Shown here one piece after another: positions 33,433 to 60,833 of a stretch of 64,000 nucleotides of DNA (position 1 is the first letter of the stretch; every line of letters begins with the position of its first letter). The stretch is taken from NCBI GenBank assembly GCA_023898525.1, contig CP060227.1:557634-621633 (forward strand). The letters run 5' to 3'. The stretch is from Candidatus Nomurabacteria bacterium. GTDB taxonomy: Bacteria > Patescibacteriota > Minisyncoccia > Phycocordibacterales > UBA918. Under the pieces are notes generated by a model that had not been told where the DNA came from, did not search any database, and saw only the letters and a list, made by a program, of their open reading frames with translations. Made by a program: the position numbers and the translations under genes.

Positions 33433-33505
33433 GCGCCTTTAGCTCAGTTGGTAGAGCAGCTCCCTTTTAAGGAGACGGTCCAAGGTTCGAGCCCTTGAAG
33501 GCGCA
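33433..33505 (+). tRNA. tRNA-Lys (anticodon UUU).
   Basis: The cloverleaf was folded by hand. The acceptor stem is gcgcctt/aaggcgc. The D arm is gctc-agttggta-gagc. The anticodon arm is gctcc-CTTTTAA-ggaga (27:43 is a G.A mismatch; the loop equals the E. coli tRNA-Lys loop). The T arm is caagg-TTCGAGC-ccttg. The discriminator is A, and no CCA is encoded. Confidence 0.85.
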
Positions 33506-33558
33506 CAAATATTAAAACCCTCCGAACGGAGGGTTTTAATATTTGTGCGCCTTCAAGG
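33494..33558. repeat. A perfect inverted repeat with 31-bp arms whose left arm starts inside the tRNA-Lys 3' end (T-stem and acceptor strand).
   Basis: cttgaaggcgcacaaatattaaaaccctccg-aac-cggagggttttaatatttgtgcgccttcaag. Confidence 0.85.
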
Positions 33559-47155: not shown

Positions 47156-48253
47156 CTAACGATTCATCGGCATCACCAAATACCTTAAGGTATTGTCTGA
47201 CACACCATTTATCACGAGTGGTCGACCAATACCAGCAAAATGCATAACAATACTGTCATCAGAGATATGAGACAATGGCTCTATTAAATATTGCTGATTG
47301 AAGTTTAAGGATAGTTCTTCACCTTCAATTACAGCCTTAACAGTATCAGTAATATGCCCTACCTCGTTATTTTGTGAAGAAACAACAATATTACCATCAG
47401 TTAAAGACAGCGAAACTTGATGGAATTTATTTAAAAACACAGAAGTTTTCTTAAAAGCATTTAGGAGTTCACTTTTTAGCACCGTAACATGTGTAATGTA
47501 CTCTTTCGGTATTATCTGTTCATAATCTGGAAAAGACCCTGACACCAACCGAGAGGTTACGTATACCCCCTCAGAAACAAAATCCAAAGCACACTGGTTA
47601 TCGGTCACTGTTAAAACCGGATCATCTTCCAATAAATCACAAATACGAGCCAATTCAATCGCATTCTTTTGTGGCACCAAAAACGAGTGATCAAGCACCA
47701 CCCCTTTTTGCGGCACTCGCTTTTCCATTAAGCGAAAAGAATCGGTGGATACAAAAGTTAAAGAGTGTTCCCTTTTTTGCTGAACATAAACACTACCTAA
47801 CTCAGGCTTTATAGAAGACTGTGAAGCAGCAAAGGCGGTAGTTTTTATACCCGAAGCAAAAAGAGGTCTATTAACCTTCACTCCTCCACCCTCAAGGTGT
47901 CTTATAGTTGGAAATTCCTCGAAAGGAATTGACTTAATAGAAGTATTAGTTTGCTTTGATTCAATCAATAATACACCATCTTCGTCACGAAGGGTTATTT
48001 CTGATTGATTAATATACTGAATACTTTGCAGTAGAGTTGTCATCGGTACCGCTATTGTCCCAATTTCATTTATTTTACCTGGAATAGTAACTTCGATACT
48101 CAACTCCAGATTAGTAGCCTTGATGGATATGGTATCTGCCGTTGCATTAATTAAAGCACACTGCAAAACAGGTAGAGTCACATGCTTAGTGCTGATACGA
48201 CTGATGAGTTCCAGAGTTTTAATTAGTTGTGGATGAGGGGTTATTATTTCCAT
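47156..48253 (-). CDS. dnaN: DNA polymerase III beta subunit (sliding clamp).
   Basis: It is 365 aa with a three-domain clamp pattern. It lies downstream of dnaA. Confidence 0.9.
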   Translation of the reverse strand: MEIITPHPQLIKTLELISRISTKHVTLPVLQCALINATADTISIKATNLELSIEVTIPGKINEIGTIAVPMTTLLQSIQYINQSEITLRDEDGVLLIESKQTNTSIKSIPFEEFPTIRHLEGGGVKVNRPLFASGIKTTAFAASQSSIKPELGSVYVQQKREHSLTFVSTDSFRLMEKRVPQKGVVLDHSFLVPQKNAIELARICDLLEDDPVLTVTDNQCALDFVSEGVYVTSRLVSGSFPDYEQIIPKEYITHVTVLKSELLNAFKKTSVFLNKFHQVSLSLTDGNIVVSSQNNEVGHITDTVKAVIEGEELSLNFNQQYLIEPLSHISDDSIVMHFAGIGRPLVINGVSDNTLRYLVMPMNR

Positions 48254-48627
48254 ATTTAAATCATATTCTACTCTTTATTATTAGGGTTGTGGAAGTGTGC
48301 ATATCTCAAAAATATGTTGTATTTATAATCGTTTTTTATCAACAATACCTATTGGTGATAGTTGGTATCGTGTTTGAGAGTTTGGGATAAGGTGTGAATA
48401 TTAAGCTGGTGACTAAAAAGGCTAAAAATAATGTTGATAAGATGGTAGGCAAACCAACACTTTTTCCTAGTATAACACTGTCTTACTAACAGGTTTTCCG
48501 AGTCATAACCCAAAACATTTTTAAAGTTATTAACAAGGTAATTAACATGTGGTTGGTTAAGTTTTTATAAACAAATAACCCCAAGCACTAGTGGGGTTAT
48601 TTGTTTATATTAATTACTTTACTTCAT

Positions 48628-50034
48628 CTACTTAAGAAGCATCCTTATTTGGGTTATTTCTTCCTCCAGTTCGGAATTGGACTTTAGTTCTAGTTTTATT
48701 TTTTCACAAGAGTGGATCACGGTGGTGTGGTCGCGACCGCCAAGTTTTTTACCAATGGCTGGATAAGAGACTTGAAAATCCTCTCTTAGAATATACATGA
48801 TAATTTGTCTAGGTTTAACAATTTCTTTTCGTCTGGTTTTTTCATAAATACTAGATTGGTCTATATCAAAATATCGAGCCACTTTATCCACCACATCAGA
48901 AACTGCGAGAGTTTTTCTTGGTTTTGAACTGTTTTTAATTATCGACTTTACTTCATCTAATGATAGGGTTTTACCTAATAGTTGTGATTGGCACATGATG
49001 GTGTTTAATGCACCTTCCAGTTCCCGTATATTACCTTCGATTGTATAGGCTAGATGGTCTACTACATCGTCTGATAGTGTAATACTGTTTTGGGCTGCTT
49101 TAGCTTTCAAAATAGCGGCTCTTGACTCAAGGTCTGGGGCTGGTATGTCCACAATCATCCCTTGAGAAAAACGAGACAGTAATCTCTCTTCTAAACCAGA
49201 CAATAAAGCGGGGTGAACATCACTTGAAAACACTATTTGTTTATTGGTGTCGTGTAAAGCGTTAAACAAATGGAACAGCTCCTCTTGCGTTTTTTCTTTA
49301 TTGGCCAAGAATTGTACATCGTCCATTATTAAAACATCATACTGACGATATTTATCCTTAAAGCTATTAGCGGTGCCGCTTTGAAGTGAGTTGAAGTAGT
49401 CAACTGCAAAACGTTCGCTGGTAACATAGTATACTTTTTTACCAGTTTTTTTAACCTGATTACCTACTGCTTGGATAAGGTGAGTCTTACCGTGGCCGGT
49501 CTTACCGTAAATAAAAAGCGGATTATAAGCTATCCCTGGTCGTTCACTAACAGCTTTAGCGGCGGTATGGGCCAAGGCGTTGTAGGGGCCAATAACAAAG
49601 GTGTCAAAAGAATATTTTGGATTAAGGTTATCGCTTTTGTTTATATAATATTCTTCCAGCGGTAGGGCTGCGTTAACAGTCTGAGTTTTATTACTATCAG
49701 CTCTACGGTCAGTGCGCTGCACTACTTCATATTCAACACTGCGAACATAAGGAGTTAAATCCCTAAGAGTTTTAAGAATCATTGATTGAAATTTGTCTTG
49801 TAGCCAATCGCGAACAAAAACACTAGGTACCGCCAGACTAATCGTACCATCCTCTAGAGATAGAATGTATGTATCTCTAAACCAAGTCTTAAAATTGGCT
49901 GGAGTAATAGAGAGTTCAATTTTAACCAAAGCATCGTCCCACAACTTTTTTACATCTATATGTTCAGTGCGAACTATACTATTGGTTGGTTGTGGGTGTG
50001 AGATTTGGTTCATAATCAGAAGTGTATAACACAC
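48628..50034 (-). CDS. dnaA: Chromosomal replication initiator DnaA.
   Basis: The AAA+ Walker A is GKTGHGKTHL. Walker B is LIMDDVQFL. The sensors are present. The C-terminal DNA-binding domain is IGKKLGGRDHTTVIHSCEKI. The start is probably MNQISHP... Confidence 0.95.
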   Translation of the reverse strand: MCYTLLIMNQISHPQPTNSIVRTEHIDVKKLWDDALVKIELSITPANFKTWFRDTYILSLEDGTISLAVPSVFVRDWLQDKFQSMILKTLRDLTPYVRSVEYEVVQRTDRRADSNKTQTVNAALPLEEYYINKSDNLNPKYSFDTFVIGPYNALAHTAAKAVSERPGIAYNPLFIYGKTGHGKTHLIQAVGNQVKKTGKKVYYVTSERFAVDYFNSLQSGTANSFKDKYRQYDVLIMDDVQFLANKEKTQEELFHLFNALHDTNKQIVFSSDVHPALLSGLEERLLSRFSQGMIVDIPAPDLESRAAILKAKAAQNSITLSDDVVDHLAYTIEGNIRELEGALNTIMCQSQLLGKTLSLDEVKSIIKNSSKPRKTLAVSDVVDKVARYFDIDQSSIYEKTRRKEIVKPRQIIMYILREDFQVSYPAIGKKLGGRDHTTVIHSCEKIKLELKSNSELEEEITQIRMLLK

Positions 50035-50267
50035 TGCATTATACCCTCATTCTCAAAGCTGTAAAACCCATACGTACTTTTGAAGTAAAACCAATAACTT
50101 TTTTTAAAAATAAAAATGCAACTGTGTATAACCTGTGTATAAAATGTAATTAAAAATATACCACCCTACCCTCTTTTTTGTGACCTATACAACAAATCTA
50201 ACTAAGCTATTGAATTATTTATTTAATCATGTATAGTGTGACGGTAAATTACATTAGCTGAAATCAT
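50035..50267. promoter_or_regulatory. Candidate oriC / DnaA-box region between divergent dnaA and rpmH.
   Basis: The region is AT-rich. Two direct TGTGTATAA boxes (matching TGTGNAWAA) lie at 50123-50131 and 50134-50142, one helical turn apart. Degenerate boxes (TTATCAACA, TGTTGATAA) also occur in the dnaA-dnaN spacer at 48254-48627. Confidence 0.4.
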
Positions 50268-50417
50268 ATGAGTAAAAGAACTTATCAACCAAGCAAAAGA
50301 AAAAGGGCTACTACCCATGGTTTTTTGGTACGCAGCGCCACCCCTTCTGGAGCTAAGGTTTTACAAGCAAGACGTCGTAAAGGACGGGCACAACTAACGG
50401 TCAAAAAAGCTCGCTAA
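50268..50417 (+). CDS. rpmH: 50S ribosomal protein L34.
   Basis: It is not in the ORF track because it is shorter than 60 aa. My translation is [49 protein letters not shown], a classic L34. It lies upstream of rnpA. Confidence 0.85.
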
Positions 50418-50465
50418 GAGCTTTTTTGTTATATGAAATAACGTTATTATAATAATAGTTATTTT

Positions 50466-50792
50466 ATGTTAAAAAAAACCAGTCGCCTAAACTCTGCTTC
50501 CTTTAATACACTTTTAGCTCAAGGTAGAAGATTACATAATATGTATTCTACCGTCATTTACGCACCAGCCACCAGTTTTGCTTGTGTGGTGGTGGTTGGT
50601 AAGAAGATTTTTAAAAAGGCTCATGACCGCAATCGGTTGCGGCGACGTGTTTATGCAGTTATTAGTCGATTGGTTGCTGATAAAAAACCAACCGGTGCTT
50701 ATATTGTGTTGATAAAACCGAATATTAAGGAGTTGACGAAAAACGAAGTTATAGAGGTTATTAAAAAAGAAGTTGGACGAGTAATAAAATAA
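50466..50792 (+). CDS. rnpA: Ribonuclease P protein component.
   Basis: It is a 108-aa basic protein with KKAHDRNRLRRRVYA (the RNR motif). The rpmH-rnpA-yidC synteny supports the call. Confidence 0.85.
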   Translation: MLKKTSRLNSASFNTLLAQGRRLHNMYSTVIYAPATSFACVVVVGKKIFKKAHDRNRLRRRVYAVISRLVADKKPTGAYIVLIKPNIKELTKNEVIEVIKKEVGRVIK

Positions 50793-50808
50793 AGGTAGAA
50801 TAGTCACC

Positions 50809-51537
50809 ATGAGTTATATTTGGCATACATTTTTTTTCGACCCTGTTTACAACGGGTTAATATTTTTTATTGACATTATTCCTGGAGGTGATGTTGGGGT
50901 GGCGATTATCGCTACGGTGGCGGTAGTTAAGTTTATTTTGTTACCACTTTCTATCAAAGCGGCTAAAACGCAAAAAATAATGCGGGAAATTGAACCTAAG
51001 TTGCGAGAAATAAAAGAGAAGCACAAAGACAATAAAGAAGAACAAGCTAGGGCGATGATGGAAATTTATCGCGATGCTGGTATGAATCCATTTGCTAGTT
51101 TGTTTTTGGTTTTTCTGCAAATTCCGATCATTATTGCCCTTTACTTTTCGGTTTATAGTGGCGGCGGGGTAGCTTTACCGGAAATTAACACCGCTCTACT
51201 CTACTCTTTTGTGTCTACTCCCAGTTTGGTTGATATGAATTTCCTAGGCATGATTGATATATCTGGTAAGAGTGTACTATTGGCTGCTTTAGCGGGTGTT
51301 ACCCAATACTATCAGGTTAAACTGGCGATGCCTCAAATGGCCCCACGAGATCCTAATAAGGCTCCTGACATGAAAGAGGATATTATGCGCAATATGCAGC
51401 TACAAATGCGCTATGTTATGCCGGTCATTATTTTTGTAGTATCTTACGTTATATCAGCAGCGATTGCTCTTTACTTCTTTGTTAGCAATGTGGCAGCTAT
51501 CTTACAAGAATTACATATAAAAAAGCATCATCGGTAA
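50809..51537 (+). CDS. yidC: Membrane protein insertase YidC (short Gram-positive/Oxa1-like form).
   Basis: LLPLSIKAAKTQKIMREIEPKLREIKEKHKDNKEEQARAMMEIYRDAGMNP is the hallmark YidC C1-loop region. It has five TM segments. Confidence 0.85.
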   Translation: MSYIWHTFFFDPVYNGLIFFIDIIPGGDVGVAIIATVAVVKFILLPLSIKAAKTQKIMREIEPKLREIKEKHKDNKEEQARAMMEIYRDAGMNPFASLFLVFLQIPIIIALYFSVYSGGGVALPEINTALLYSFVSTPSLVDMNFLGMIDISGKSVLLAALAGVTQYYQVKLAMPQMAPRDPNKAPDMKEDIMRNMQLQMRYVMPVIIFVVSYVISAAIALYFFVSNVAAILQELHIKKHHR

Positions 51538-51597: not shown

Positions 51598-52347
51598 TTA
51601 CTGATTGTATGGATCGTAAGTACAGGCAATTTTAGTATTATCGGTGATATCGCCCCAGGTGTTGGTTGGGTGGAAAGCGGTACCTTTTAAATCTGCACAG
51701 GCGGCTTCTTGAGCGCTACAGTCGTAATTAGGCACCATATAAGTTACACCGGATTTAGGGTCTGTAAAAGGAACGTTACCGTCCCCTGGAACACATCCAA
51801 ATACTTTAGTGGTCAAAGACACATCGCTGGATTTGCGGATACACCACCAACTACCAGCTTCGCTGGTTGGTTGTGCTGTGCCACCTATATCTTCACAAGC
51901 AGCTTTACTGCTAACAACAGATAAGGTTTCTCCAGCACCTGCATTGTAAGCCGGTTCTGCTCCCAGTCTTTCAGCTTGAGTTGGGCCGTTGAGTTCGTTT
52001 GGTGGTGCTAGAAATATCTGTGTATTAGCTAGTTGTGGGTTAATGGTAGTGAGGACTAGAACGGCCGAGATAACAATTAATAAACCAAGGGTGGCGCCCC
52101 AAATATCACTCTTAGCTTCTTGTTTGGAGGTAACAATATCAGACAGCATCCACCTAAGCCCGGCGATGATGATCTTTATAACCGCCAGTAAAGCAGCGAC
52201 AGCGATTGAAAGGGCGTATAATCTATTTATATAAGTGCCGAAGTCGGTGTTTGGATCAACTCCAATACCGACCAGTTGTTGGTATTGAGCTAAGGTTATG
52301 GAAGGTAGCAATATAATTGCCAGTATAAATAGTGTTTTATAATTCAT
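51598..52347 (-). CDS. Secreted protein with a VirB2/TrbC-pilin-like N-terminal half (signal peptide plus two TM helices) and a Cys-rich C-terminal extension. It is the last gene of the T4SS-like operon.
   Basis: The signal peptide is MNYKTLFILAIILLPSITLA. Two hydrophobic helices (LYALSIAVAALLAVIKIIIAGL and IWGATLGLLIVISAVLVLTTI) are separated by a charged loop. The last 140 aa contain 8 Cys. Confidence 0.3.
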   Translation of the reverse strand: MNYKTLFILAIILLPSITLAQYQQLVGIGVDPNTDFGTYINRLYALSIAVAALLAVIKIIIAGLRWMLSDIVTSKQEAKSDIWGATLGLLIVISAVLVLTTINPQLANTQIFLAPPNELNGPTQAERLGAEPAYNAGAGETLSVVSSKAACEDIGGTAQPTSEAGSWWCIRKSSDVSLTTKVFGCVPGDGNVPFTDPKSGVTYMVPNYDCSAQEAACADLKGTAFHPTNTWGDITDNTKIACTYDPYNQ

Positions 52348-53530
52348 ACATCCAAAGAGTGTTATCGTTCTTGTTTATAAAGTATACTGCTTTTTCGCTG
52401 CTTCCGATACCTAGGTTTGTCACATCAATCTCTCTTTGACTTTCGGTAAAAGTATCAACCAATAAGTTGGCAGTTAAATCGGTGCTGGAAATTAACCAAA
52501 GAGAATCCTTGAAATTGGTCTCCCCTTGGTACCAGCTGTCCGGAAGGTTGATTGATTGATTGGTGCTACTGTCATAAGCACAGATAAAATTAGAAGTGTT
52601 TTCGGCGGTAATACATTTTTCCGGCAAGAAACTTACTGGAAGAGGAAAGTTTGCTTCGGTGTTAGATTCTCTGTTATAGATAAAAGCTCTATATTCAGTA
52701 CCAGTGTTTTTACTATAAGCAATAATTTTATTATTAGCTAAGGCGGTAAAACCGGCCCCATCGGCTGGTAAACGATTTATTTTTCCAGCCTTTATTTCCG
52801 CTAAGTAACCTTCCAAGATCGAAGCTGGCTTTGGGTACATGTAATGGGTGGCTGAGCTGTCACTTCCCCATTCAATAATCGCTTCACTTATTGGTAAGTC
52901 AAAGATGGTTTTATCGGTCTCGGTTTTTAAATTATAACTATGCCCTGTTAAACCAGTACTTTCCTTCACTGAATATAAAAGTTCTTGCCCATCATTACTA
53001 AGAGTAAAACTGTCGGCTGAAGTTGTGATTTGCTCCGTTGTAAGATCACTACTGGTGCTTATTTCACCAACAGTTAAGGTCGTGTTTTTGGAATTTCCCG
53101 GTGTACCCATCACCACATAGTCACCAGCTGGAGACACCATCGCGGTAGTAGCTCCTACTATAGTGGTACCAGAGACCCTAGCTTCCTCACCAGTTTCTAA
53201 ATTTAAGCTATAGATGTGACCAGTTCCCATTTCTACATAATAAATCGTTGGTAGCTCAGTAGTAGTAGTTCCTTGGTCGATTTCTCCCCAACCAGCAACC
53301 ATTTTAGTGGTTAGTTGGCGTAATTTTGGACGATTAGTGTTTACAATTGGGGTTTCTTCTTCTAGATTTTGACCTTGGTTGTTATCAATCACTTCTTCAC
53401 TACCTAGTCCAAAATTAGCATATATGTCATCAGCTGACTTGGGTGTACCGAAGAATAATAAATATGCCCAGATAATGATTAATATAAAAATAATGATGGC
53501 GCCGACAATAATGAAGATTGGTTTATTCAT
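52337..53530 (-). CDS. Membrane-anchored extracytoplasmic protein (Thr/Ser-rich, beta-rich), T4SS-operon component.
   Basis: It has an N-terminal TM segment (IFIIVGAIIIFILIIIWAYLLFF) and sits within the operon. Confidence 0.45.
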   Translation of the reverse strand: MNKPIFIIVGAIIIFILIIIWAYLLFFGTPKSADDIYANFGLGSEEVIDNNQGQNLEEETPIVNTNRPKLRQLTTKMVAGWGEIDQGTTTTELPTIYYVEMGTGHIYSLNLETGEEARVSGTTIVGATTAMVSPAGDYVVMGTPGNSKNTTLTVGEISTSSDLTTEQITTSADSFTLSNDGQELLYSVKESTGLTGHSYNLKTETDKTIFDLPISEAIIEWGSDSSATHYMYPKPASILEGYLAEIKAGKINRLPADGAGFTALANNKIIAYSKNTGTEYRAFIYNRESNTEANFPLPVSFLPEKCITAENTSNFICAYDSSTNQSINLPDSWYQGETNFKDSLWLISSTDLTANLLVDTFTESQREIDVTNLGIGSSEKAVYFINKNDNTLWMYEL

Positions 53531-53539
53531 ACACTATAC

Positions 53540-54499
53540 TTAGAAATTTACCTTAAAGCTACCTTTGGCTCCTTGTAAAAAGTTGGTTGTGCTGTTGATT
53601 CGGAAACTAACATTCGAAACGCCAGATGATCCTTGTCTAGCCAAGGTTACTTCATAAGGGTTGTTGCCGGCACTCGGACTTCTTTGTCCATCAATCTTCC
53701 ATTCCAGAACATCGGGACGGTTATAAGTGTTTATGTCTACAAAGTAAGGTTCGGCTTGAACGCTAACGCTGTTACCAATCAAATTTAAGGTCCTATCAAT
53801 TGGTATATGCTTTACACCGTATAAAGTATTGGTTTCGTAGAATAGCATTTTTGGATCACCGTAAACGAGTGGAATAGTGCGTTTGGCAACTAGTTCACCG
53901 GCTAGGTTGGTGATGGTGACAGTCACAACATTTTGGTAGCCTGGTGGAACCTTGAGGGCTACTTTATAATTTCCACGAAGTGATCCTCCAGCCAATACAG
54001 TGTCGTTTAAAGACCAGTTGTAAATATAATTTTCAGAGTCACTCAAACTACTGTTGATAAGAGCGGTTAGGTTAATAGTGCTTTCTAGTGTGGGAATGGC
54101 ACGGCCTTGGTAAAAGCTTGGTGTTTTAGTTTGTGGTTCTATAACAATATCTAGGTAGAATGGTCTAATCACTCTTTTAGCTGAAAAAATAATCCCCTCA
54201 AAGGTTTTGGCAGATACTTCTATGGTGGTAGGTTGGCCAATATCTTTGGTGGTAAAATCAACAGTTTTTTGATTATTGGCTTCGGGTACAGCTTCACCAT
54301 CTATTTTCCAGCTGATACCAGTAATGTTTAGTGGTACAGAGTAATCATCTACTGTAGCGGTGTTTTTAGAGAACGGCTTTGTATATTCATCTTTTAGAGT
54401 GATACTTAAATTAGTTTGTTGATTAACACTGAAATTGCTTTGGGCGTAGGTAAAACTTATGGGCAGAAAAATAGTGAAAATAAATATTAGGTATCTCAT
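53540..54499 (-). CDS. Secreted protein (Sec signal peptide), T4SS-operon component.
   Basis: The signal peptide is MRYLIFIFTIFLPISFTYA-QS. Confidence 0.45.
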   Translation of the reverse strand: MRYLIFIFTIFLPISFTYAQSNFSVNQQTNLSITLKDEYTKPFSKNTATVDDYSVPLNITGISWKIDGEAVPEANNQKTVDFTTKDIGQPTTIEVSAKTFEGIIFSAKRVIRPFYLDIVIEPQTKTPSFYQGRAIPTLESTINLTALINSSLSDSENYIYNWSLNDTVLAGGSLRGNYKVALKVPPGYQNVVTVTITNLAGELVAKRTIPLVYGDPKMLFYETNTLYGVKHIPIDRTLNLIGNSVSVQAEPYFVDINTYNRPDVLEWKIDGQRSPSAGNNPYEVTLARQGSSGVSNVSFRINSTTNFLQGAKGSFKVNF

Positions 54500-54546
54500 G
54501 GTTATTATAATAACAAACTATAGGCAAAAAAAAGCATCTTTAGACA

Positions 54547-55329
54547 CTATCTTGGGTATTTCCAAATAGCAGCAATCCAAAAGCCGATCCATGGAAAAAG
54601 ATTTAGTAGCGGTACAGCATAACCAACCATAGCCAGCAAAAGCGTACCGTATTTCAGGCTAGAGTGACTACCTGCTAATGGTCTGACTCGAGCTAAGGTG
54701 TATTGTATATAAATAGTTGATATAGTTCCTGCTCCAATGGCTAGTACTATAAAATAACCAGCTAAGAAAAGGCTGGCGGCAATATCACTGGCTCCGAACA
54801 TGTTGGCTATCCCTGCTATGCTGCTAATAACAAAATTTTTAGTTTTTTCCCATAGACCCTGATCTTCATTGTTTTGGCCAGCAAAATCACCTGATAAGCC
54901 GGCGGCAGCAGCTAGGCCAACCAAAGACACAAAGGCAAAGAAAAGTTGTGCCATATAAACCCAGCCCACCCAAGAAGCAATGGCAGCGGTAGCTCTATTG
55001 GCACGTAGGCGACGGGCCGGAGATATATCTTTAGGTTGTTCAACTTTTATTTTAGATATATAGTTATCGTCATTAACGGGTGCTATTGTATTAACTTGAG
55101 ACCGATAGCTTGTTACCAATGTGTCCCCCACTTGCTGTGTACCGATTTTTTTTGGTTGTCTGATGGTGGTGGAGTTTAAACCCTGGCTTTTATGAGTCAG
55201 GTTAAATTTCTGGTCGGTAGTTGGATGGTTTGGTTCAGTTGCTTGATCCAAATATTCCCAATCATTATTAATACGCTGCTTATCAATTCGGCGCGCGTTT
55301 CTGATTGGTTGTGCGTTTGCTTCAGCCAT
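54547..55329 (-). CDS. Membrane protein (hydrophilic N-terminus, 4-5 C-terminal TM segments), T4SS-operon component.
   Basis: Hydrophobicity pattern only. It lies immediately downstream of the VirB4 gene. Confidence 0.45.
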   Translation of the reverse strand: MAEANAQPIRNARRIDKQRINNDWEYLDQATEPNHPTTDQKFNLTHKSQGLNSTTIRQPKKIGTQQVGDTLVTSYRSQVNTIAPVNDDNYISKIKVEQPKDISPARRLRANRATAAIASWVGWVYMAQLFFAFVSLVGLAAAAGLSGDFAGQNNEDQGLWEKTKNFVISSIAGIANMFGASDIAASLFLAGYFIVLAIGAGTISTIYIQYTLARVRPLAGSHSSLKYGTLLLAMVGYAVPLLNLFPWIGFWIAAIWKYPR

Positions 55330-55347: not shown

Positions 55348-57141
55348 TTACTGTCTAGATAACTGTAGTTCTTCCCGTGCCTTTTTGATTTGGAGAAGTT
55401 GAGAAGGGTCTGAAGTAATGATCTGGTCTTCGGTGTATGAAGCAATAACCTTGATGGCGACATGCTTTAAACCGGCGAAAAATATCCCCTCCCCTACATT
55501 CGATTCAAGAAGTAAGAATTTTTCTTCATCAGTTAAGTTGAAGGTTTTTTGAATATTATCAATCGCGGTGGCTGATTGTTTCATTAGGAACTGAATAGAA
55601 GAGTTGGTGATCATTGGTACTCCATAAGGTGACCGCAAAAAGTCATCAACATCCTGAGTAATGGTGGCAATACCTAAGTAATATTTACGTCCTCGCTTGG
55701 CTAGGCTAAATAGAAAGGAAGCGGTGTCTTCAGATTTCATCATCCACCAAGCCTCGTCAATAACCAATAGTCGCTTAACCATCCTTCGTCTAACGGAGCT
55801 CCAAATGAAGTTGGTAATAATGTACATGGCAATGGTTTTAAGCTCGTCTTCCATGTCACGTAGTGAAAAGACGACAAATTTTTGGTTGATGTCGACGTTG
55901 GTAGGTTTGTTCATAAAACCTGACCAAGTACCAGAGGTGTATTTTTGGAGGCGGGTAATCAGTGAAGCACTACCATCCATACCAGCTAGTACCATCTCAA
56001 AATCAGACAAAAGCGGCGGTTCTTGTTCGGAAAAGTCTGTATCACCGGTGATATCTTTAAGGGCATAGGTTTCCTGAATAGCTAAGTCCAAGATAGTCTC
56101 TTCCTCTGGTGCGAGGCCGCCAAGCATTAGTCGGAAAAGACCGATCAGTTCAATGATGTGAGCCCTGAGTACGTCTCTAGGATCTTCGTCTGCTTGGGGT
56201 GGTGGTAAGTCAAAAGGATTGATGTGGTGGTCAGATGAAAGAGAAATGTTAAAAAAGCGACCGCCGGTAGCTTCGGCTAAGTATTCATATTCTCGCTCTG
56301 GATCCAGTACAATAACTTCGGTACCAAACATTAAAGAGCGCAAAATTTCCAGCTTTAAACCGTATGATTTACCAGCACCCGAAGTGGCAAAGGTAACTGA
56401 ATTATAGTTAGTGAGAGAAAAACGATCAAAAAGGACCAGTGATGAGTTGTGGCGATTTATACCGTAAAGGATTCCGGTGTCTGAGGTGAGGTCAAAAGAA
56501 GTGAAGGGAAAGAAGCTGGATAGAGGAGATGAATTAAATTTGCTGTGAACCAAGAGTTTGTCACTGGCGGTAGGAAAGATACTTTGAATACCCTGTTCTT
56601 GTTGAAAGAGGGCGGGTTTTAGATAGATTAATCTAGAGTCAAGAATACCCTTTACATCATTTTCGGTTTTGTTTAAAGTTGCTTCATCTTTTCCATAAAT
56701 AGTAACGTAAAAACCAACATTAAAGAGTTTTTCTTCAGCTTGCTGTAAGCGGTCTCTTAGTTCTTCAAGGTTTCGGTAAGCAGCCTCGAGTTGCGGGTCA
56801 CGCACCTCCCCTTTTTCGGCCTTAATATTAATCTGACTTTGTACCTCCGCTACCTTTTTTTGAAACTTTTTTAGACTGTCAGCAGTATCAATGGGGTGAA
56901 TGAAAATAGAAACATCAAGTTCTTTATCCATATTTAATACTGGTTCCATCCATCCGGCGTTGAGATAGTGAGGATAAGCCACTGCGTACAAGACCCTAAC
57001 ATCCACTCCGCTTAAGTTTATGCCACGTGGGGTGATATTGACAGCCGAAGGAGCTACAACATCAACCAGGGTTAGCAACTGGTCACTAACAGAAGGCTCG
57101 TTGGATTTTTTTTGTGGTTTAAATTGATCAAAGATACCCAT
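55348..57141 (-). CDS. virB4: VirB4/TrbE/CagE-family type IV secretion ATPase, C-terminal ATPase portion.
   Basis: Walker A is FATSGAGKSYGLK. Walker B is LLVIDEAWWMM. The conserved IATITQ region of VirB4/TraC ATPases is present. It lies in frame with, and 6 nt downstream of, 57148..57789. Confidence 0.8.
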   Translation of the reverse strand: MGIFDQFKPQKKSNEPSVSDQLLTLVDVVAPSAVNITPRGINLSGVDVRVLYAVAYPHYLNAGWMEPVLNMDKELDVSIFIHPIDTADSLKKFQKKVAEVQSQINIKAEKGEVRDPQLEAAYRNLEELRDRLQQAEEKLFNVGFYVTIYGKDEATLNKTENDVKGILDSRLIYLKPALFQQEQGIQSIFPTASDKLLVHSKFNSSPLSSFFPFTSFDLTSDTGILYGINRHNSSLVLFDRFSLTNYNSVTFATSGAGKSYGLKLEILRSLMFGTEVIVLDPEREYEYLAEATGGRFFNISLSSDHHINPFDLPPPQADEDPRDVLRAHIIELIGLFRLMLGGLAPEEETILDLAIQETYALKDITGDTDFSEQEPPLLSDFEMVLAGMDGSASLITRLQKYTSGTWSGFMNKPTNVDINQKFVVFSLRDMEDELKTIAMYIITNFIWSSVRRRMVKRLLVIDEAWWMMKSEDTASFLFSLAKRGRKYYLGIATITQDVDDFLRSPYGVPMITNSSIQFLMKQSATAIDNIQKTFNLTDEEKFLLLESNVGEGIFFAGLKHVAIKVIASYTEDQIITSDPSQLLQIKKAREELQLSRQ

Positions 57142-57147
57142 AGTGTT

Positions 57148-57789
57148 TTATTTGTTAAAAGTCGGAGCTGATCCGGTGGCGTCAATTGGATTATAAATGT
57201 GATAAAAAAGTTCAACCAAATCATCACTGCCTAAAGCAGTGGTTCTAACTCCAATTCTGCCTAATCCCTGTTCTACTACAGCCACTCTTTGCTCAAGCTG
57301 AACTCTCTGTTCCTCAAAACGCATCTCAGTGGAGTTATTGCTAGAGGTTTTTGGTTTAGTCGAGAAAAGTGAGGTAATGCCTTTGGTTATATTGGTCGGA
57401 GTTGGTGAGTAAGGTATAACCACAAAGAAGTTTTTACTCATGATGTCAACCTCGGTGGTAAAGGTGTTTATGAATTCTATGTATTCACGCAACTGAATTC
57501 GCATCAGATCATTATCTTGCTTTGATTCTCTGGTTTTAAGTAGTTCCAGATAGGGTTCGATATTTAGACGTCTGGATTGCACGTAGATTTGCAGAGAAAA
57601 ATCAAGGGTGTTAAGGAAGGTTTGGAATTGTTGTAGTATCGCCTGTTGTTCATCGTTTGACTTCAAAGCAAAGTTAATTGATGTGGCAAGTAGAATGGTA
57701 CATAATTGACCAGATTTTAATACTAAAATCCCGTCTTTTACATCTTTAATAGCAACGAATTGTTGGGTGGCGGCTGTAGTTTTAGGCAT
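57148..57789 (-). CDS. VirB4 N-terminal domain, encoded as a separate ORF.
   Basis: FVAIKDVKDGILVLKSGQLCTILLATSINFALKSNDEQQAILQQFQTFLNTLDFSLQI resembles the conserved N-terminus of Gram-positive VirB4 homologs (Tn916 Orf16/PrgJ/TcpF type). It ends ...PTFNK-TAA-AAC-ACT-ATG-GGT... so a single stop separates it from the ATPase ORF in the same frame. Confidence 0.5.
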   Translation of the reverse strand: MPKTTAATQQFVAIKDVKDGILVLKSGQLCTILLATSINFALKSNDEQQAILQQFQTFLNTLDFSLQIYVQSRRLNIEPYLELLKTRESKQDNDLMRIQLREYIEFINTFTTEVDIMSKNFFVVIPYSPTPTNITKGITSLFSTKPKTSSNNSTEMRFEEQRVQLEQRVAVVEQGLGRIGVRTTALGSDDLVELFYHIYNPIDATGSAPTFNK

Positions 57790-57790
57790 A

Positions 57791-58243
57791 TTATTCTTTC
57801 TTTTGGATAGCTTCTAATTCTAAGCGACGGGCTAATGAGGTAGTGCTTTGACGGTTGGTTGGTTGTCCGAGATTTTGACTTTGACGTGGATCCGGATAGT
57901 TAACTGTATTAGGTGTAAACATGTCTTTGTGGATCACGTCTTCTTTTTGTCTCCACAAATATAGTTTTGTACTAGATAGATAGGTAAATATAGCTTCAAG
58001 AAAAAAGGAAAATGGACGGTTGTTAACCGGGTAAAAGGCTAAGGCTATAGCTAAAAGAGCTAATGGTAGTCCAAGAATAAGAAATAGTATTTTATTTATA
58101 AAAAATAAAACTACACCCATTCCGACTCCTCCACCAAGATAGAGAAACTGTCGCCAAGTTAACGGCCCGAAGATTTTGTCTTCAATATCAATAAATTGTG
58201 GTACTTCAAATCGCATAACACACGTACAAAATACATTATACAC
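57791..58243 (-). CDS. PrgI/TcpE-like small membrane protein (the VirB3 analogue of Gram-positive-type T4SS).
   Basis: MRFEVPQFIDIEDKIFGPLTWRQFLYLGGGVGMGVVLFFI matches the PrgI-family consensus (F..P.F.D.EDKI.G.LT.RQ) followed by two TM helices. The true start is probably MRFEV... Confidence 0.55.
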   Translation of the reverse strand: MYNVFCTCVMRFEVPQFIDIEDKIFGPLTWRQFLYLGGGVGMGVVLFFINKILFLILGLPLALLAIALAFYPVNNRPFSFFLEAIFTYLSSTKLYLWRQKEDVIHKDMFTPNTVNYPDPRQSQNLGQPTNRQSTTSLARRLELEAIQKKE

Positions 58244-58325: not shown

Positions 58326-58826
58326 CTATTGATTGGCGTACCCGATAGGTGGATTTGGTGGGCTGGGCGGCGGAGGTGGTGTTGTGTTATTTACAGATCC
58401 GGAAGCGACAAATTGGGTGGCGGCGGTACTTTGGTGGTTGGACTGTAGTGTTTTAGTGGGGTCGTTGTGTGTCTCTGTTTTTTCCATATTTGATGGATAT
58501 GGTTTTGGGTAACTACCCTCCTCAGCTTGATAAGCCACATTGTCTGTCAATTTCTTTATAAAATCCAATATTTTTATAGACATAACCTGAGTAGTATCAC
58601 TATCTACATCTAATTTTGTTAACTCATCAGGTATATCCTTGTCGGAAAAAATTCCTAACAGCTTATTTGAAGTTATAACAATCAACTTCATTTTCAAATT
58701 ACTATACTGTGTATTGCTTATTAGACTATCTATAAATAATCCTATTTTATCAGAATCAATTATATCTCGTAAACCTTGATCTGCATTACTGTAAGCTTCT
58801 ATAAATTTTTCAAAAGTATTTTCCAT
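58326..58826 (-). CDS. Hypothetical protein with a Pro-rich C-terminus (PPPPPSPPNPP), T4SS-operon component.
   Basis: ORF and operon position only. Confidence 0.4.
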   Translation of the reverse strand: MENTFEKFIEAYSNADQGLRDIIDSDKIGLFIDSLISNTQYSNLKMKLIVITSNKLLGIFSDKDIPDELTKLDVDSDTTQVMSIKILDFIKKLTDNVAYQAEEGSYPKPYPSNMEKTETHNDPTKTLQSNHQSTAATQFVASGSVNNTTPPPPPSPPNPPIGYANQ

Positions 58827-58829
58827 ATT

Positions 58830-60833
58830 TTATGCGAAGAATTGTGCGGCGTAGGTTGAATTTCCGTTTGCCCATTTAACCCATGGATTATTTGGTCCTA
58901 ACGCGACAGTTGGTACAGTTGTACTTGCAATACCTAAGTTTGCCGACAAGGCATTTCTAATTTCGGTTCTATCAGTGGTTGATATACCATTCTTAATTCT
59001 TTCTTCGAGCATAGCGGGAGTTATATGATCAAACATACTCTGTTGCTTGAAGACATCCACCGGCATCTTTCCGATATCCTTAACATTTTTGCTAAACATT
59101 GAAGATTTTTGATCAACCGTGCTAGCGTTTGGGTGTGAATATAGTAGTGCTCCTGTAGAATTCTTTCCTGCACCAAGGACATTACCGTGAGTTGCAATAT
59201 TAGTATAAGCTTCATTTCTGGTGTTTTTAATATCTTGAATTTGCTGTGATGAGAATTTACCTGTTTTTTCTAGATTGCTTATATCGTCATCTGATAGGTG
59301 CATGGCCACTTTCTGATTGTTTAGTTTTTCAAATCCGAGCTTTTCTTTTTCAATTCCAGTCATTTTCCTAATAGTCTTTCCTAACTCATCAAAAGCATCT
59401 GATAGGTCTGTGGCCAACTTGGTTTTATCGTCAAGGGTTTTGTTATATGTTTCAAATTGTCTTTTACGTTCAAGCTCTCCTTCTGTTTGGTTTGCTCTAG
59501 CTTGTGTTGATTGCCTGTATTCTTTTTCCTTCAGGTTTGTGGTTCCTGTACCAAGTTCAGCGTTTTTTAGTTTCTCTGCGCCGCCTCTAGCTGCTCTATC
59601 AACCCAGTTCCATCTTGATATAGTTCCAGCTAAACCACTTCGTGTCTGTAGTTCGTTCAATCTTCTTTCTCTATTTGCACCATAAGCATTTGCTGCCATA
59701 CGTGCTCCTGCTCTAGCTGGATAAGTTATGCCAAAAGTCACACTACCAGCTGCGCGACGAGCACGACCACTTAAGTGTTTTCCAAAAGTGACCATGGCAT
59801 TACCACCGGTCATACCAATCTTTTGTCCTACAACAATAGCTGCCATTAGGAAAGCAATCATAATTAGGAAGTAAGGTACAGTGGTGGCAAATGCTTCAGT
59901 GGCAGTGGCGACATTGTTGCTGGCAAAAGCGGTAGCAAAAGAGTTTGACTTGGCCAGAACTGAAAATTCATTAAAGACCACATAAGCAAAATAAAGCATT
60001 AAAATATAGGCGGGAGCATAAAAAGCTCGGGCCAAAAAATTCTGCCAATACTCAGTTGAGTATCTCTGCAGATTTGGAAAAACCCAACCCAGAAACATAA
60101 TCGGAGAAAGAATCATGTATAGATTTAATACCACAAATCTTATGATTAATAATATGGCACCAGCAAAGAAAGCAAAAGCTGTCACCATGAATAGAAAGAG
60201 GGTTCCGAAGATATAAGTGTAACCATTACCATTACTGGATGAAAAAGCGGTAAGGTCACCGTCAAATATGCTAGTAAGACCTAATCTCTCTACAAATTTT
60301 CCAGCCGCTTCGTATTCACCTGCCCCGTTTGAAAATGCACCAGCCACCTGCATAGCAGCAATGTTGGAGAAATCAACAATAAATTTGGTGATAAATAAGC
60401 TAAAGTTCACCAACAGCGCCGCTAGAATGATGTGGACCAACATTTTTTTGGCGCTACTGTCACCTACGTTTAATATCATTTTAAAACCGATATAAACTAG
60501 ACCGAAGATAAAGGTTAGGTTAAAAATGTCGCGAACGGTTTGCCAGAGATTATCAACGGCAAAGCCAAGTCCAGTATTAATAAATAGGTCACCAAATCCT
60601 ATAACAAAGGTGGTAATGGCAGTATCGAGAAGTTTTCCAGCCATCCATACTAGAAAGCCAAATACTCCATTAACTACTCCCCACAGTAGGTCTTGAAACC
60701 AACTAGACCCCAATTTTTCATCTGCCCCACCATCGCCAACTGCGAAAGCCAAAGTAGGAAGAATCAATAGCAAAAAAGCTCCAATTCCTATTAAGAGTCC
60801 TGTGTACTTTTTATTCGCTATGAAGTTTGTCAT
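58830..60833 (-). CDS. Large polytopic membrane protein, VirB6/TrbL-like candidate (first gene of the T4SS-like operon).
   Basis: It has about 8-9 TM helices over 350 aa, followed by a hydrophilic coiled-coil-like tail. Its position is as expected for a VirB6 analogue. Confidence 0.45.
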   Translation of the reverse strand: MTNFIANKKYTGLLIGIGAFLLLILPTLAFAVGDGGADEKLGSSWFQDLLWGVVNGVFGFLVWMAGKLLDTAITTFVIGFGDLFINTGLGFAVDNLWQTVRDIFNLTFIFGLVYIGFKMILNVGDSSAKKMLVHIILAALLVNFSLFITKFIVDFSNIAAMQVAGAFSNGAGEYEAAGKFVERLGLTSIFDGDLTAFSSSNGNGYTYIFGTLFLFMVTAFAFFAGAILLIIRFVVLNLYMILSPIMFLGWVFPNLQRYSTEYWQNFLARAFYAPAYILMLYFAYVVFNEFSVLAKSNSFATAFASNNVATATEAFATTVPYFLIMIAFLMAAIVVGQKIGMTGGNAMVTFGKHLSGRARRAAGSVTFGITYPARAGARMAANAYGANRERRLNELQTRSGLAGTISRWNWVDRAARGGAEKLKNAELGTGTTNLKEKEYRQSTQARANQTEGELERKRQFETYNKTLDDKTKLATDLSDAFDELGKTIRKMTGIEKEKLGFEKLNNQKVAMHLSDDDISNLEKTGKFSSQQIQDIKNTRNEAYTNIATHGNVLGAGKNSTGALLYSHPNASTVDQKSSMFSKNVKDIGKMPVDVFKQQSMFDHITPAMLEERIKNGISTTDRTEIRNALSANLGIASTTVPTVALGPNNPWVKWANGNSTYAAQFFA

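Follow-up and report, generated by a model that had tools for sequence, protein, structure and literature searches.

Here we argue that an apparently interrupted VirB4, the ATPase of type IV secretion systems (T4SSs), in the genome of Candidatus Nomurabacteria bacterium is in all likelihood the work of two genuine genes, transcribed together in a T4SS operon that is chromosomal and of Gram-positive (MPF-FATA-like) type. One encodes a TrsD-like protein and the other the rest of VirB4; their products would jointly rebuild the VirB4 N-terminal platform, and the reading frame that the genes share is a coincidence. The pair lies in a stretch of 64,000 nucleotides (nt) of GenBank assembly GCA_023898525.1 (contig CP060227.1, positions 557,634 to 621,633), hereafter the window. 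A preliminary description of the window had drawn attention to the single in-frame stop codon between the two open reading frames (ORFs), and had offered a recent nonsense mutation, a sequencing error, a genuinely bipartite VirB4 or stop-codon readthrough as its cause.

Both genes are on the minus strand. The upstream, trsD-like gene (ORF1; 57148..57789) begins with ATG, encodes 213 amino acids (aa) and ends in TAA (57150-57148). A spacer of 6 nt, AACACT (57142..57147), holding neither a Shine-Dalgarno (SD)-like motif nor a terminator, separates that stop from the ATG (57141-57139) of the virB4/traC-type ATPase gene (ORF2; 55348..57141; 597 aa). In the window sequence, the two ORFs lie in one reading frame, TAA-AAC-ACT being followed by ATG, as the preliminary description had reported; the coordinates, lengths and peptides that it gave are all present in the window. 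It had also placed a Walker A/B ATPase core in the 597-aa ORF, and both motifs are found there, Walker A (ATSGAGKS) at residues 252-259 (56365..56388, minus strand) and Walker B (LLVIDEAW) at residues 458-465 (55747..55770, minus strand). They fall within a RecA-like ATPase domain spanning residues 218-577 (55411-56490), which is preceded by a remaining N-terminal region of residues 1-217 (56491-57141).

ORF2 passes the score cut-offs of Pfam P-loop_TraG (93.3 bits, cut-off 25.8) and of NCBIfam NF045971, the VirB4-like conjugal transfer ATPases of the CD1110 family (347.7 bits, cut-off 325), and also matches the Pfam families AAA_10 and DUF87. It is not, however, a full-length VirB4 on a single polypeptide: its alignment to the CD1110 profile covers positions 179-733 of 752, and the N-terminal ~170 profile residues are absent from it. 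Positions 2-166 sit instead on the separate ORF1, so that the two ORFs are colinear over one and the same Gram-positive-type VirB4 profile. Residues 218-577 of ORF2 match the crystallised VirB4 C-terminal domain (PDB 4ag5) with an expectation value (E) of 9e-41, and from the start of this alignment at residue 218 it follows that ORF2 retains ~215 residues of the N-terminal region. Judged from these alignments, the division falls within what is classically the N-terminal domain of VirB4, at about profile position 170 of 752, and not at the boundary between the N- and C-terminal domains.

The missing portion is recognisable in ORF1. Besides the CD1110 profile, ORF1 matches the N-terminal regions of two further VirB4 profiles of NCBIfam (Mbov_0397 VirB4, positions 101-249 of 894; TIGR00929, positions 18-166 of 792), so that profile searches bear out the assignment of the 213-aa ORF to the VirB4 N-terminal segment made in the preliminary description. 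It also matches NCBIfam NF041427, the TrsD/TraD family of conjugative transfer proteins (E 2.8e-7, profile positions 16-143 of 201), and it agrees with the description of TrsD as a protein of about 200 aa that is homologous to the N-terminal portion of VirB4 and is encoded directly upstream of a VirB4 without that portion. In the precomputed annotation of the protein database, PF26593.2 (“TraC-like”) is given for the identical protein (P0001) and for each of the 120 best matches of ORF1, whereas a scan of ORF1 against a local copy of Pfam-A gave no family; the two copies of Pfam probably differ in release.

Comparison of folds points in the same direction. An AlphaFold2 (AF2) model of ORF1 based on 44 homologues had a mean predicted local distance difference test score (pLDDT) of 88.6, and in a Foldseek search of the PDB its top 14 matches were all TrwK/VirB4 chains of the R388 T4SS, each with probability 1.00. 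The query template modelling (TM) scores ranged from 0.37 to 0.61 (at least 0.47 in 13 of the 14) over 176-221 aligned columns (~210 in most), and the next match after these had E>0.1. ORF1 is therefore predicted to have the fold of the N-terminal region of R388 VirB4 (TrwK). It was the fold comparison alone that tied ORF1 to TrwK, since searches of PDB chains by sequence, with ORF1 and with its family profile, returned no meaningful match. Neither protein has a strongly hydrophobic stretch, the maximal Kyte-Doolittle mean over 19 residues being 1.57 in ORF1 and 1.41 in ORF2. ORF1 is a soluble, TrsD-like counterpart of the initial portion of the N-terminal domain of VirB4.

The division into two genes is conserved among relatives. 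From a homologue search in a database of 5.8 billion proteins, the best 120 relatives were taken for each ORF; their lengths are 203-216 aa throughout for ORF1 (69-100% identity) and 575-618 aa throughout for ORF2 (84-100% identity). Even among the best 150 representatives of clusters formed at 50% identity, which share 35-72% identity with ORF1, 148 are short (112-443 aa) and two are ATPase fusions. We also retrieved 80 loci of species-representative genomes, of which 77 hold both genes, and compared the junction in these 77 and in the window itself (n=78). The genes are separate in all 77 Patescibacteria species, as in the window; such a comparison with related genomes of the candidate phyla radiation had been proposed in the preliminary description, and its suggestion of a genuinely bipartite VirB4 is strongly supported by these species, by the best 120 relatives of each ORF, by the 148 short cluster representatives and by the precedent of TrsD/TraD in pGO1/pSK41.

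The junction itself, on the other hand, varies. The N-domain gene ends in TAA in 57 cases, TAG in 16 and TGA in 5, the gap between the two genes measures 1-496 nt, and the two share a frame in 21 junctions, with a relative frame of +1 in 38 and of +2 in 19. In-frame junctions are thus below the one third expected by chance, and five of them hold two or three stops between the ORFs. The ATPase gene, by contrast, always has its own ATG, encodes 590-654 aa and begins with a conserved MG[IL]FD-type N-terminus. The shared frame of the two ORFs in the window is a coincidence, no more than chance, and to stress a single in-frame TAA, as was done earlier, is misleading, since both the frame and the spacer vary and the ATPase start is conserved. 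The +1 frame with gaps of 1, 4, 7 or 10 nt (e.g. TAAtATG) occurs more often than chance would give (38 of 78 junctions, with 26 expected), an excess that may reflect a preferred spacing for termination-reinitiation.

Some junctions in Paceibacteria accommodate a further gene. At one locus (L024:5667-6026, plus strand), the trsD-like gene and virB4 are separated by a complete and unrelated gene of the 23S_rRNA_IVP/four-helix-bundle family (119 aa; PF05635, E 8e-36), and at another (L035:5665-6040, plus strand) a degraded, frameshifted 23S_rRNA_IVP copy occupies the same place. Two more loci, L036 and L051, with gaps of 421 and 451 nt, are listed with these insertions. The small 23S_rRNA_IVP gene seems mobile, and its insertion into the T4SS operon seems to be tolerated. 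The trsD-like gene product varies as well: three distant TrsD-like proteins (P0130, P0185 and P0226; 356-443 aa) carry low-complexity C-terminal tails of 130-230 residues, rich in Pro, Ala, Gln and Thr, after a conserved YNP motif.

Naturally fused forms also exist, rare and inside an otherwise split clade. One TrsD-VirB4 fusion, P0153 (797 aa; L084:544-2937), comes from another metagenome-assembled genome, where it follows PrgI and lies near yidC, rnpA, dnaA and dnaN. The other, P0234 (898 aa; L085:5001-7697, also L086 and L087), is found on five contigs from at least three samples and has a linker of ~100 residues, rich in Pro and Ala, between its TrsD and VirB4 parts. Fused and split forms fill the same genomic role, and the occurrence of natural fusions in the same PrgI/dnaA context shows that the two parts work as one unit.

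Similar pairs are known outside the Patescibacteria. In the staphylococcal plasmid pSK41, trsD (227 aa) lies 14 nt upstream of a VirB4 homologue (672 aa) and follows an unnamed 135-aa gene in the position corresponding to PrgI; the ORF1 family profile aligns to pSK41 TrsD over 166 columns (hhalign E 7e-5), and ORF2 to pSK41 TraE with 24% identity (BLASTP E 3e-36). The TrsD/TraD and TrsE/TraE genes of pGO1/pSK41 (MPF-FATA, pGO1 subclass) thus have the same order as in the window, both parts being homologous but distant. The pGO1/pSK41 system, however, is plasmid-borne and conjugative, with a relaxase and a type IV coupling protein, whereas that of the window is chromosomal and near oriC, and no relaxase was seen among the window ORFs scanned. 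In Pontibacillus and Geobacillus plasmids, a protein of 274-318 aa overlaps the start of a 621-636-aa VirB4 by 11-14 nt, and Geobacillus pGspE55-1 has the order PrgI, TrsD-like, VirB4 as in the window. Single-chain VirB4 proteins (CD1110 of CTn2, TrwK of R388, TraC of F) have the domain content of ORF1 plus ORF2, including the ATPase core with Walker A/B, on one polypeptide, while the window has two. VirB3-VirB4 fusion proteins exist in some conjugative systems. The module of VirB3, VirB4-N and VirB4-C is thereby spread over varying numbers of polypeptides, by fusion in those systems and by fission in the window.

For the Patescibacteria themselves, Quinonero-Coronel et al. 2025, Microb Genom (PMC12102498), describe TrsD, remotely homologous to the N-terminal portion of VirB4, as the most abundant T4SS component, with 2,272 homologues spread over 2,221 assemblies; 1,664 of the homologues are close to virB4. 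The same study gives the TrsD homologue of S. epibionticum ML1 as listed among the essential genes, reports that no VirB3-VirB4 fusions were found in Patescibacteria, and notes that the T4SS cluster is often a neighbour of dnaA/dnaN, rnpA and genes for ribosomal proteins. The window agrees with the published pair in having the TrsD-like gene directly upstream of virB4, PrgI/VirB3-like and VirB6-like genes in the cluster, a pilin-like gene near by and dnaA/dnaN/yidC alongside, within the same phylum and class-level context; relative to that pair (PMC12102498) it shows no substantive difference and represents one instance. To the passages of that study consulted here, the present analysis adds statistics on the junction, the few fused orthologues and the match in fold. 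In a 2025 review (PMC12857230), the T4SS of Patescibacteria already figures as an established system, whilst TrsD is nowhere named in the main text of Guglielmini et al. 2014 (PMC4027160).

In our reading, the trsD-like gene supplies the counterpart of the first subdomain of the VirB4 N-terminal domain, and the virB4 gene the second part of the N-terminal region together with the Walker A/B ATPase domain. Each is translated from its own ATG, with no special mechanism needed for ORF2. An SD motif is absent before the ATPase ATG, but this is uninformative on coupling because SD-like motifs are at background across the whole window: SD-like 4-mers precede 8 of 48 long ORFs, compared with 11% of random 20-mers, and 3 of 78 virB4 starts. 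This suggests that initiation in the lineage is largely SD-independent. Together with the general lack of SD motifs, the 6-nt spacer would fit tight, probably coupled, SD-independent initiation, and is compatible with coupled re-initiation. The TrsD-like protein would associate non-covalently with the N-terminal region that the ATPase retains and, jointly with the PrgI/VirB3-like protein, would rebuild the membrane-proximal N-terminal platform of a single-chain VirB4, the two anchoring the hexameric ATPase motor at the membrane channel by docking to VirB3/VirB6. By analogy with R388, association of the TrsD-like protein with the ATPase is most likely, because it is through its N-terminal domains that R388 VirB4 dimerises, associates with the membrane and contacts VirB3 and VirB8 (PMC12857230). 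A bolder version, which we regard as improbable, holds that the fission is exploited, a free TrsD-like subunit pre-assembling with PrgI/VirB3 at the membrane as a docking platform, to which the ATPase hexamer could then be recruited in a regulated or sub-stoichiometric manner. The variable low-complexity tails of the distant TrsD-like proteins, the one observation here that points this way, would in that case add partner-specific contacts, a role to which we give a similarly small chance.

Some observations weigh against two genes that together make up one VirB4. ORF1 scores 30.6 bits against NF041427, far below the curated cut-off of 200 bits, and on this score it is a distant, not a close, relative of staphylococcal TrsD, outside the curated staphylococcal-type subfamily. 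An AF2 model of an ORF1-ORF2 pseudo-fusion, built from an unpaired alignment, had low confidence (pLDDT 57.1, predicted TM score 0.32), and no interface could be read from it. In addition, TrsD homologues of Gracilibacteria are, according to the survey, mostly not adjacent to virB4 (PMC12102498), which leaves room for some functional independence.

The last point, along with the Pro/Ala/Gln-rich tails of up to ~230 aa in distant members, is what could speak for a TrsD-like protein with a function of its own, e.g. as a regulator or substrate adaptor, that does not simply complete VirB4. We consider this very unlikely, given that the two ORFs cover the VirB4 profile colinearly, that the TrsD-like protein has the fold of a VirB4 N-terminal region, that the two genes are almost always adjacent in Paceibacteria and that natural fusions to the ATPase exist.

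Less likely still is programmed readthrough of the stop codon, yielding a fused VirB4 beside the two separate proteins. The in-frame layout and the 6-nt spacer would suit it, and fused forms are viable in nature; yet the frames across the 78 junctions (21, 38 and 19) and the gaps of 1-496 nt, some with another gene inside, speak against it, as do the two or three stops carried by several in-frame junctions, the use of all three stop codons and the lack of a conserved stop context, and the readthrough option of the preliminary description is rejected. Within the operon of the window itself, a shared frame is found at 5 of 9 gene junctions in any case, across gaps of 3-18 nt; with in-frame junctions this common, a shared frame with a single stop is no signal by itself in this compact genome.

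A recent nonsense mutation that broke a single 812-aa virB4 into a pseudogene has next to no probability, although the ORFs are in frame with one stop between them and rare fused orthologues exist. Close relatives are all split, as are 77 of 77 related species and hundreds of protein clusters; junctions occur in all three frames, and the start codon and N-terminus of the ATPase are conserved. Both parts are, moreover, highly conserved among close relatives (69-85% identity for ORF1 and 84-92% for ORF2), and this explanation, too, is rejected. A false stop created by sequencing or assembly error, conceivable in a metagenome-assembled genome, is dismissed with equal assurance, since the identical 213-aa protein is found on two contigs (NCBI and Logan assemblies) and orthologues from dozens of independent assemblies stop at the same place with TAA, TAG or TGA.

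The T4SS operon that contains the two genes runs on the minus strand from ~61160 to 51598. One nt upstream of the trsD-like gene is the gene of a PrgI-family (VirB3-like) membrane protein (57791..58243, minus strand), which scores above the Pfam cut-off (41.9 bits, cut-off 27). Other T4SS membrane components clustered with virB4 are recognised by weak matches: a VirB6/TrbL-like polytopic membrane protein (58830..60833, minus strand; Pfam TrbL E 3.5e-4, below the gathering cut-off) and, after several genes for unannotated membrane or secreted proteins, the last gene of the operon, which has a weak T4SS-pilin match (51598..52347, minus strand) and after which a terminator-like hairpin is present (51579-51563). 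The VirB6-like gene and the 166-aa ORF that follows it are in frame and 3 nt apart. Four operon genes (397, 319, 260 and 166 aa; 52337-55329 and 58326-58826, minus strand) are without a Pfam match; by eye, the 319-aa product has a hydrophobic, signal-peptide-like N-terminus and the 260-aa product a C-terminal half rich in hydrophobic residues. These four proteins may be lineage-specific channel or surface parts of the T4SS, VirB8-like functions being reported as undetected in most Patescibacteria. A promoter and terminator scan of 51-62 kb found sites no more often than in shuffled sequences, and none in the 6-nt spacer, while Rfam and tRNA scans of the window returned only a tRNA-Lys (33433-33506) and no recoding-related RNA.

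Directly beside the operon are yidC, dnaA and dnaN (47156-51537), of which dnaN and dnaA (47156..50034, minus strand) mark the neighbourhood of the replication origin, the usual setting of this T4SS in Paceibacteria (PMC12102498). The sign of the GC skew changes near 48 kb, and this switch together with the neighbouring genes indicates that the T4SS adjoins the origin. The operon lies to the right of the putative origin on the minus strand, and is thus transcribed towards it; the same layout, mirrored, surrounds the fused orthologue in L084.

The two-gene VirB4 of the window is a real but ordinary and conserved feature, already described for Patescibacteria in the published survey (PMC12102498). 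For annotation, this means that pairs of a TrsD-like gene and a short VirB4, in Patescibacteria as in Gram-positive elements of the pGO1/pIP501 type, are not to be flagged as pseudogenes, frameshifts or recoding sites, and that the 213-aa “hypothetical protein” of this metagenome-assembled genome can be named a TrsD-like VirB4 N-terminal-domain protein. The unconstrained junction, the rare fusions and the inserted genes could guide the design of constructs for structural work on a two-piece VirB4. The pair belongs to a T4SS without which, according to the literature, a cultured Saccharimonadia strain cannot grow as an epibiont, and this essentiality makes the assembly of VirB4 from two pieces a legitimate, if incremental, structural question. 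Should the fission prove to be exploited, improbable as we hold that to be, it would represent an assembly logic unlike that of single-chain VirB4, in a secretion system on which at least one cultured representative of the phylum is reported to depend for its epibiotic life.

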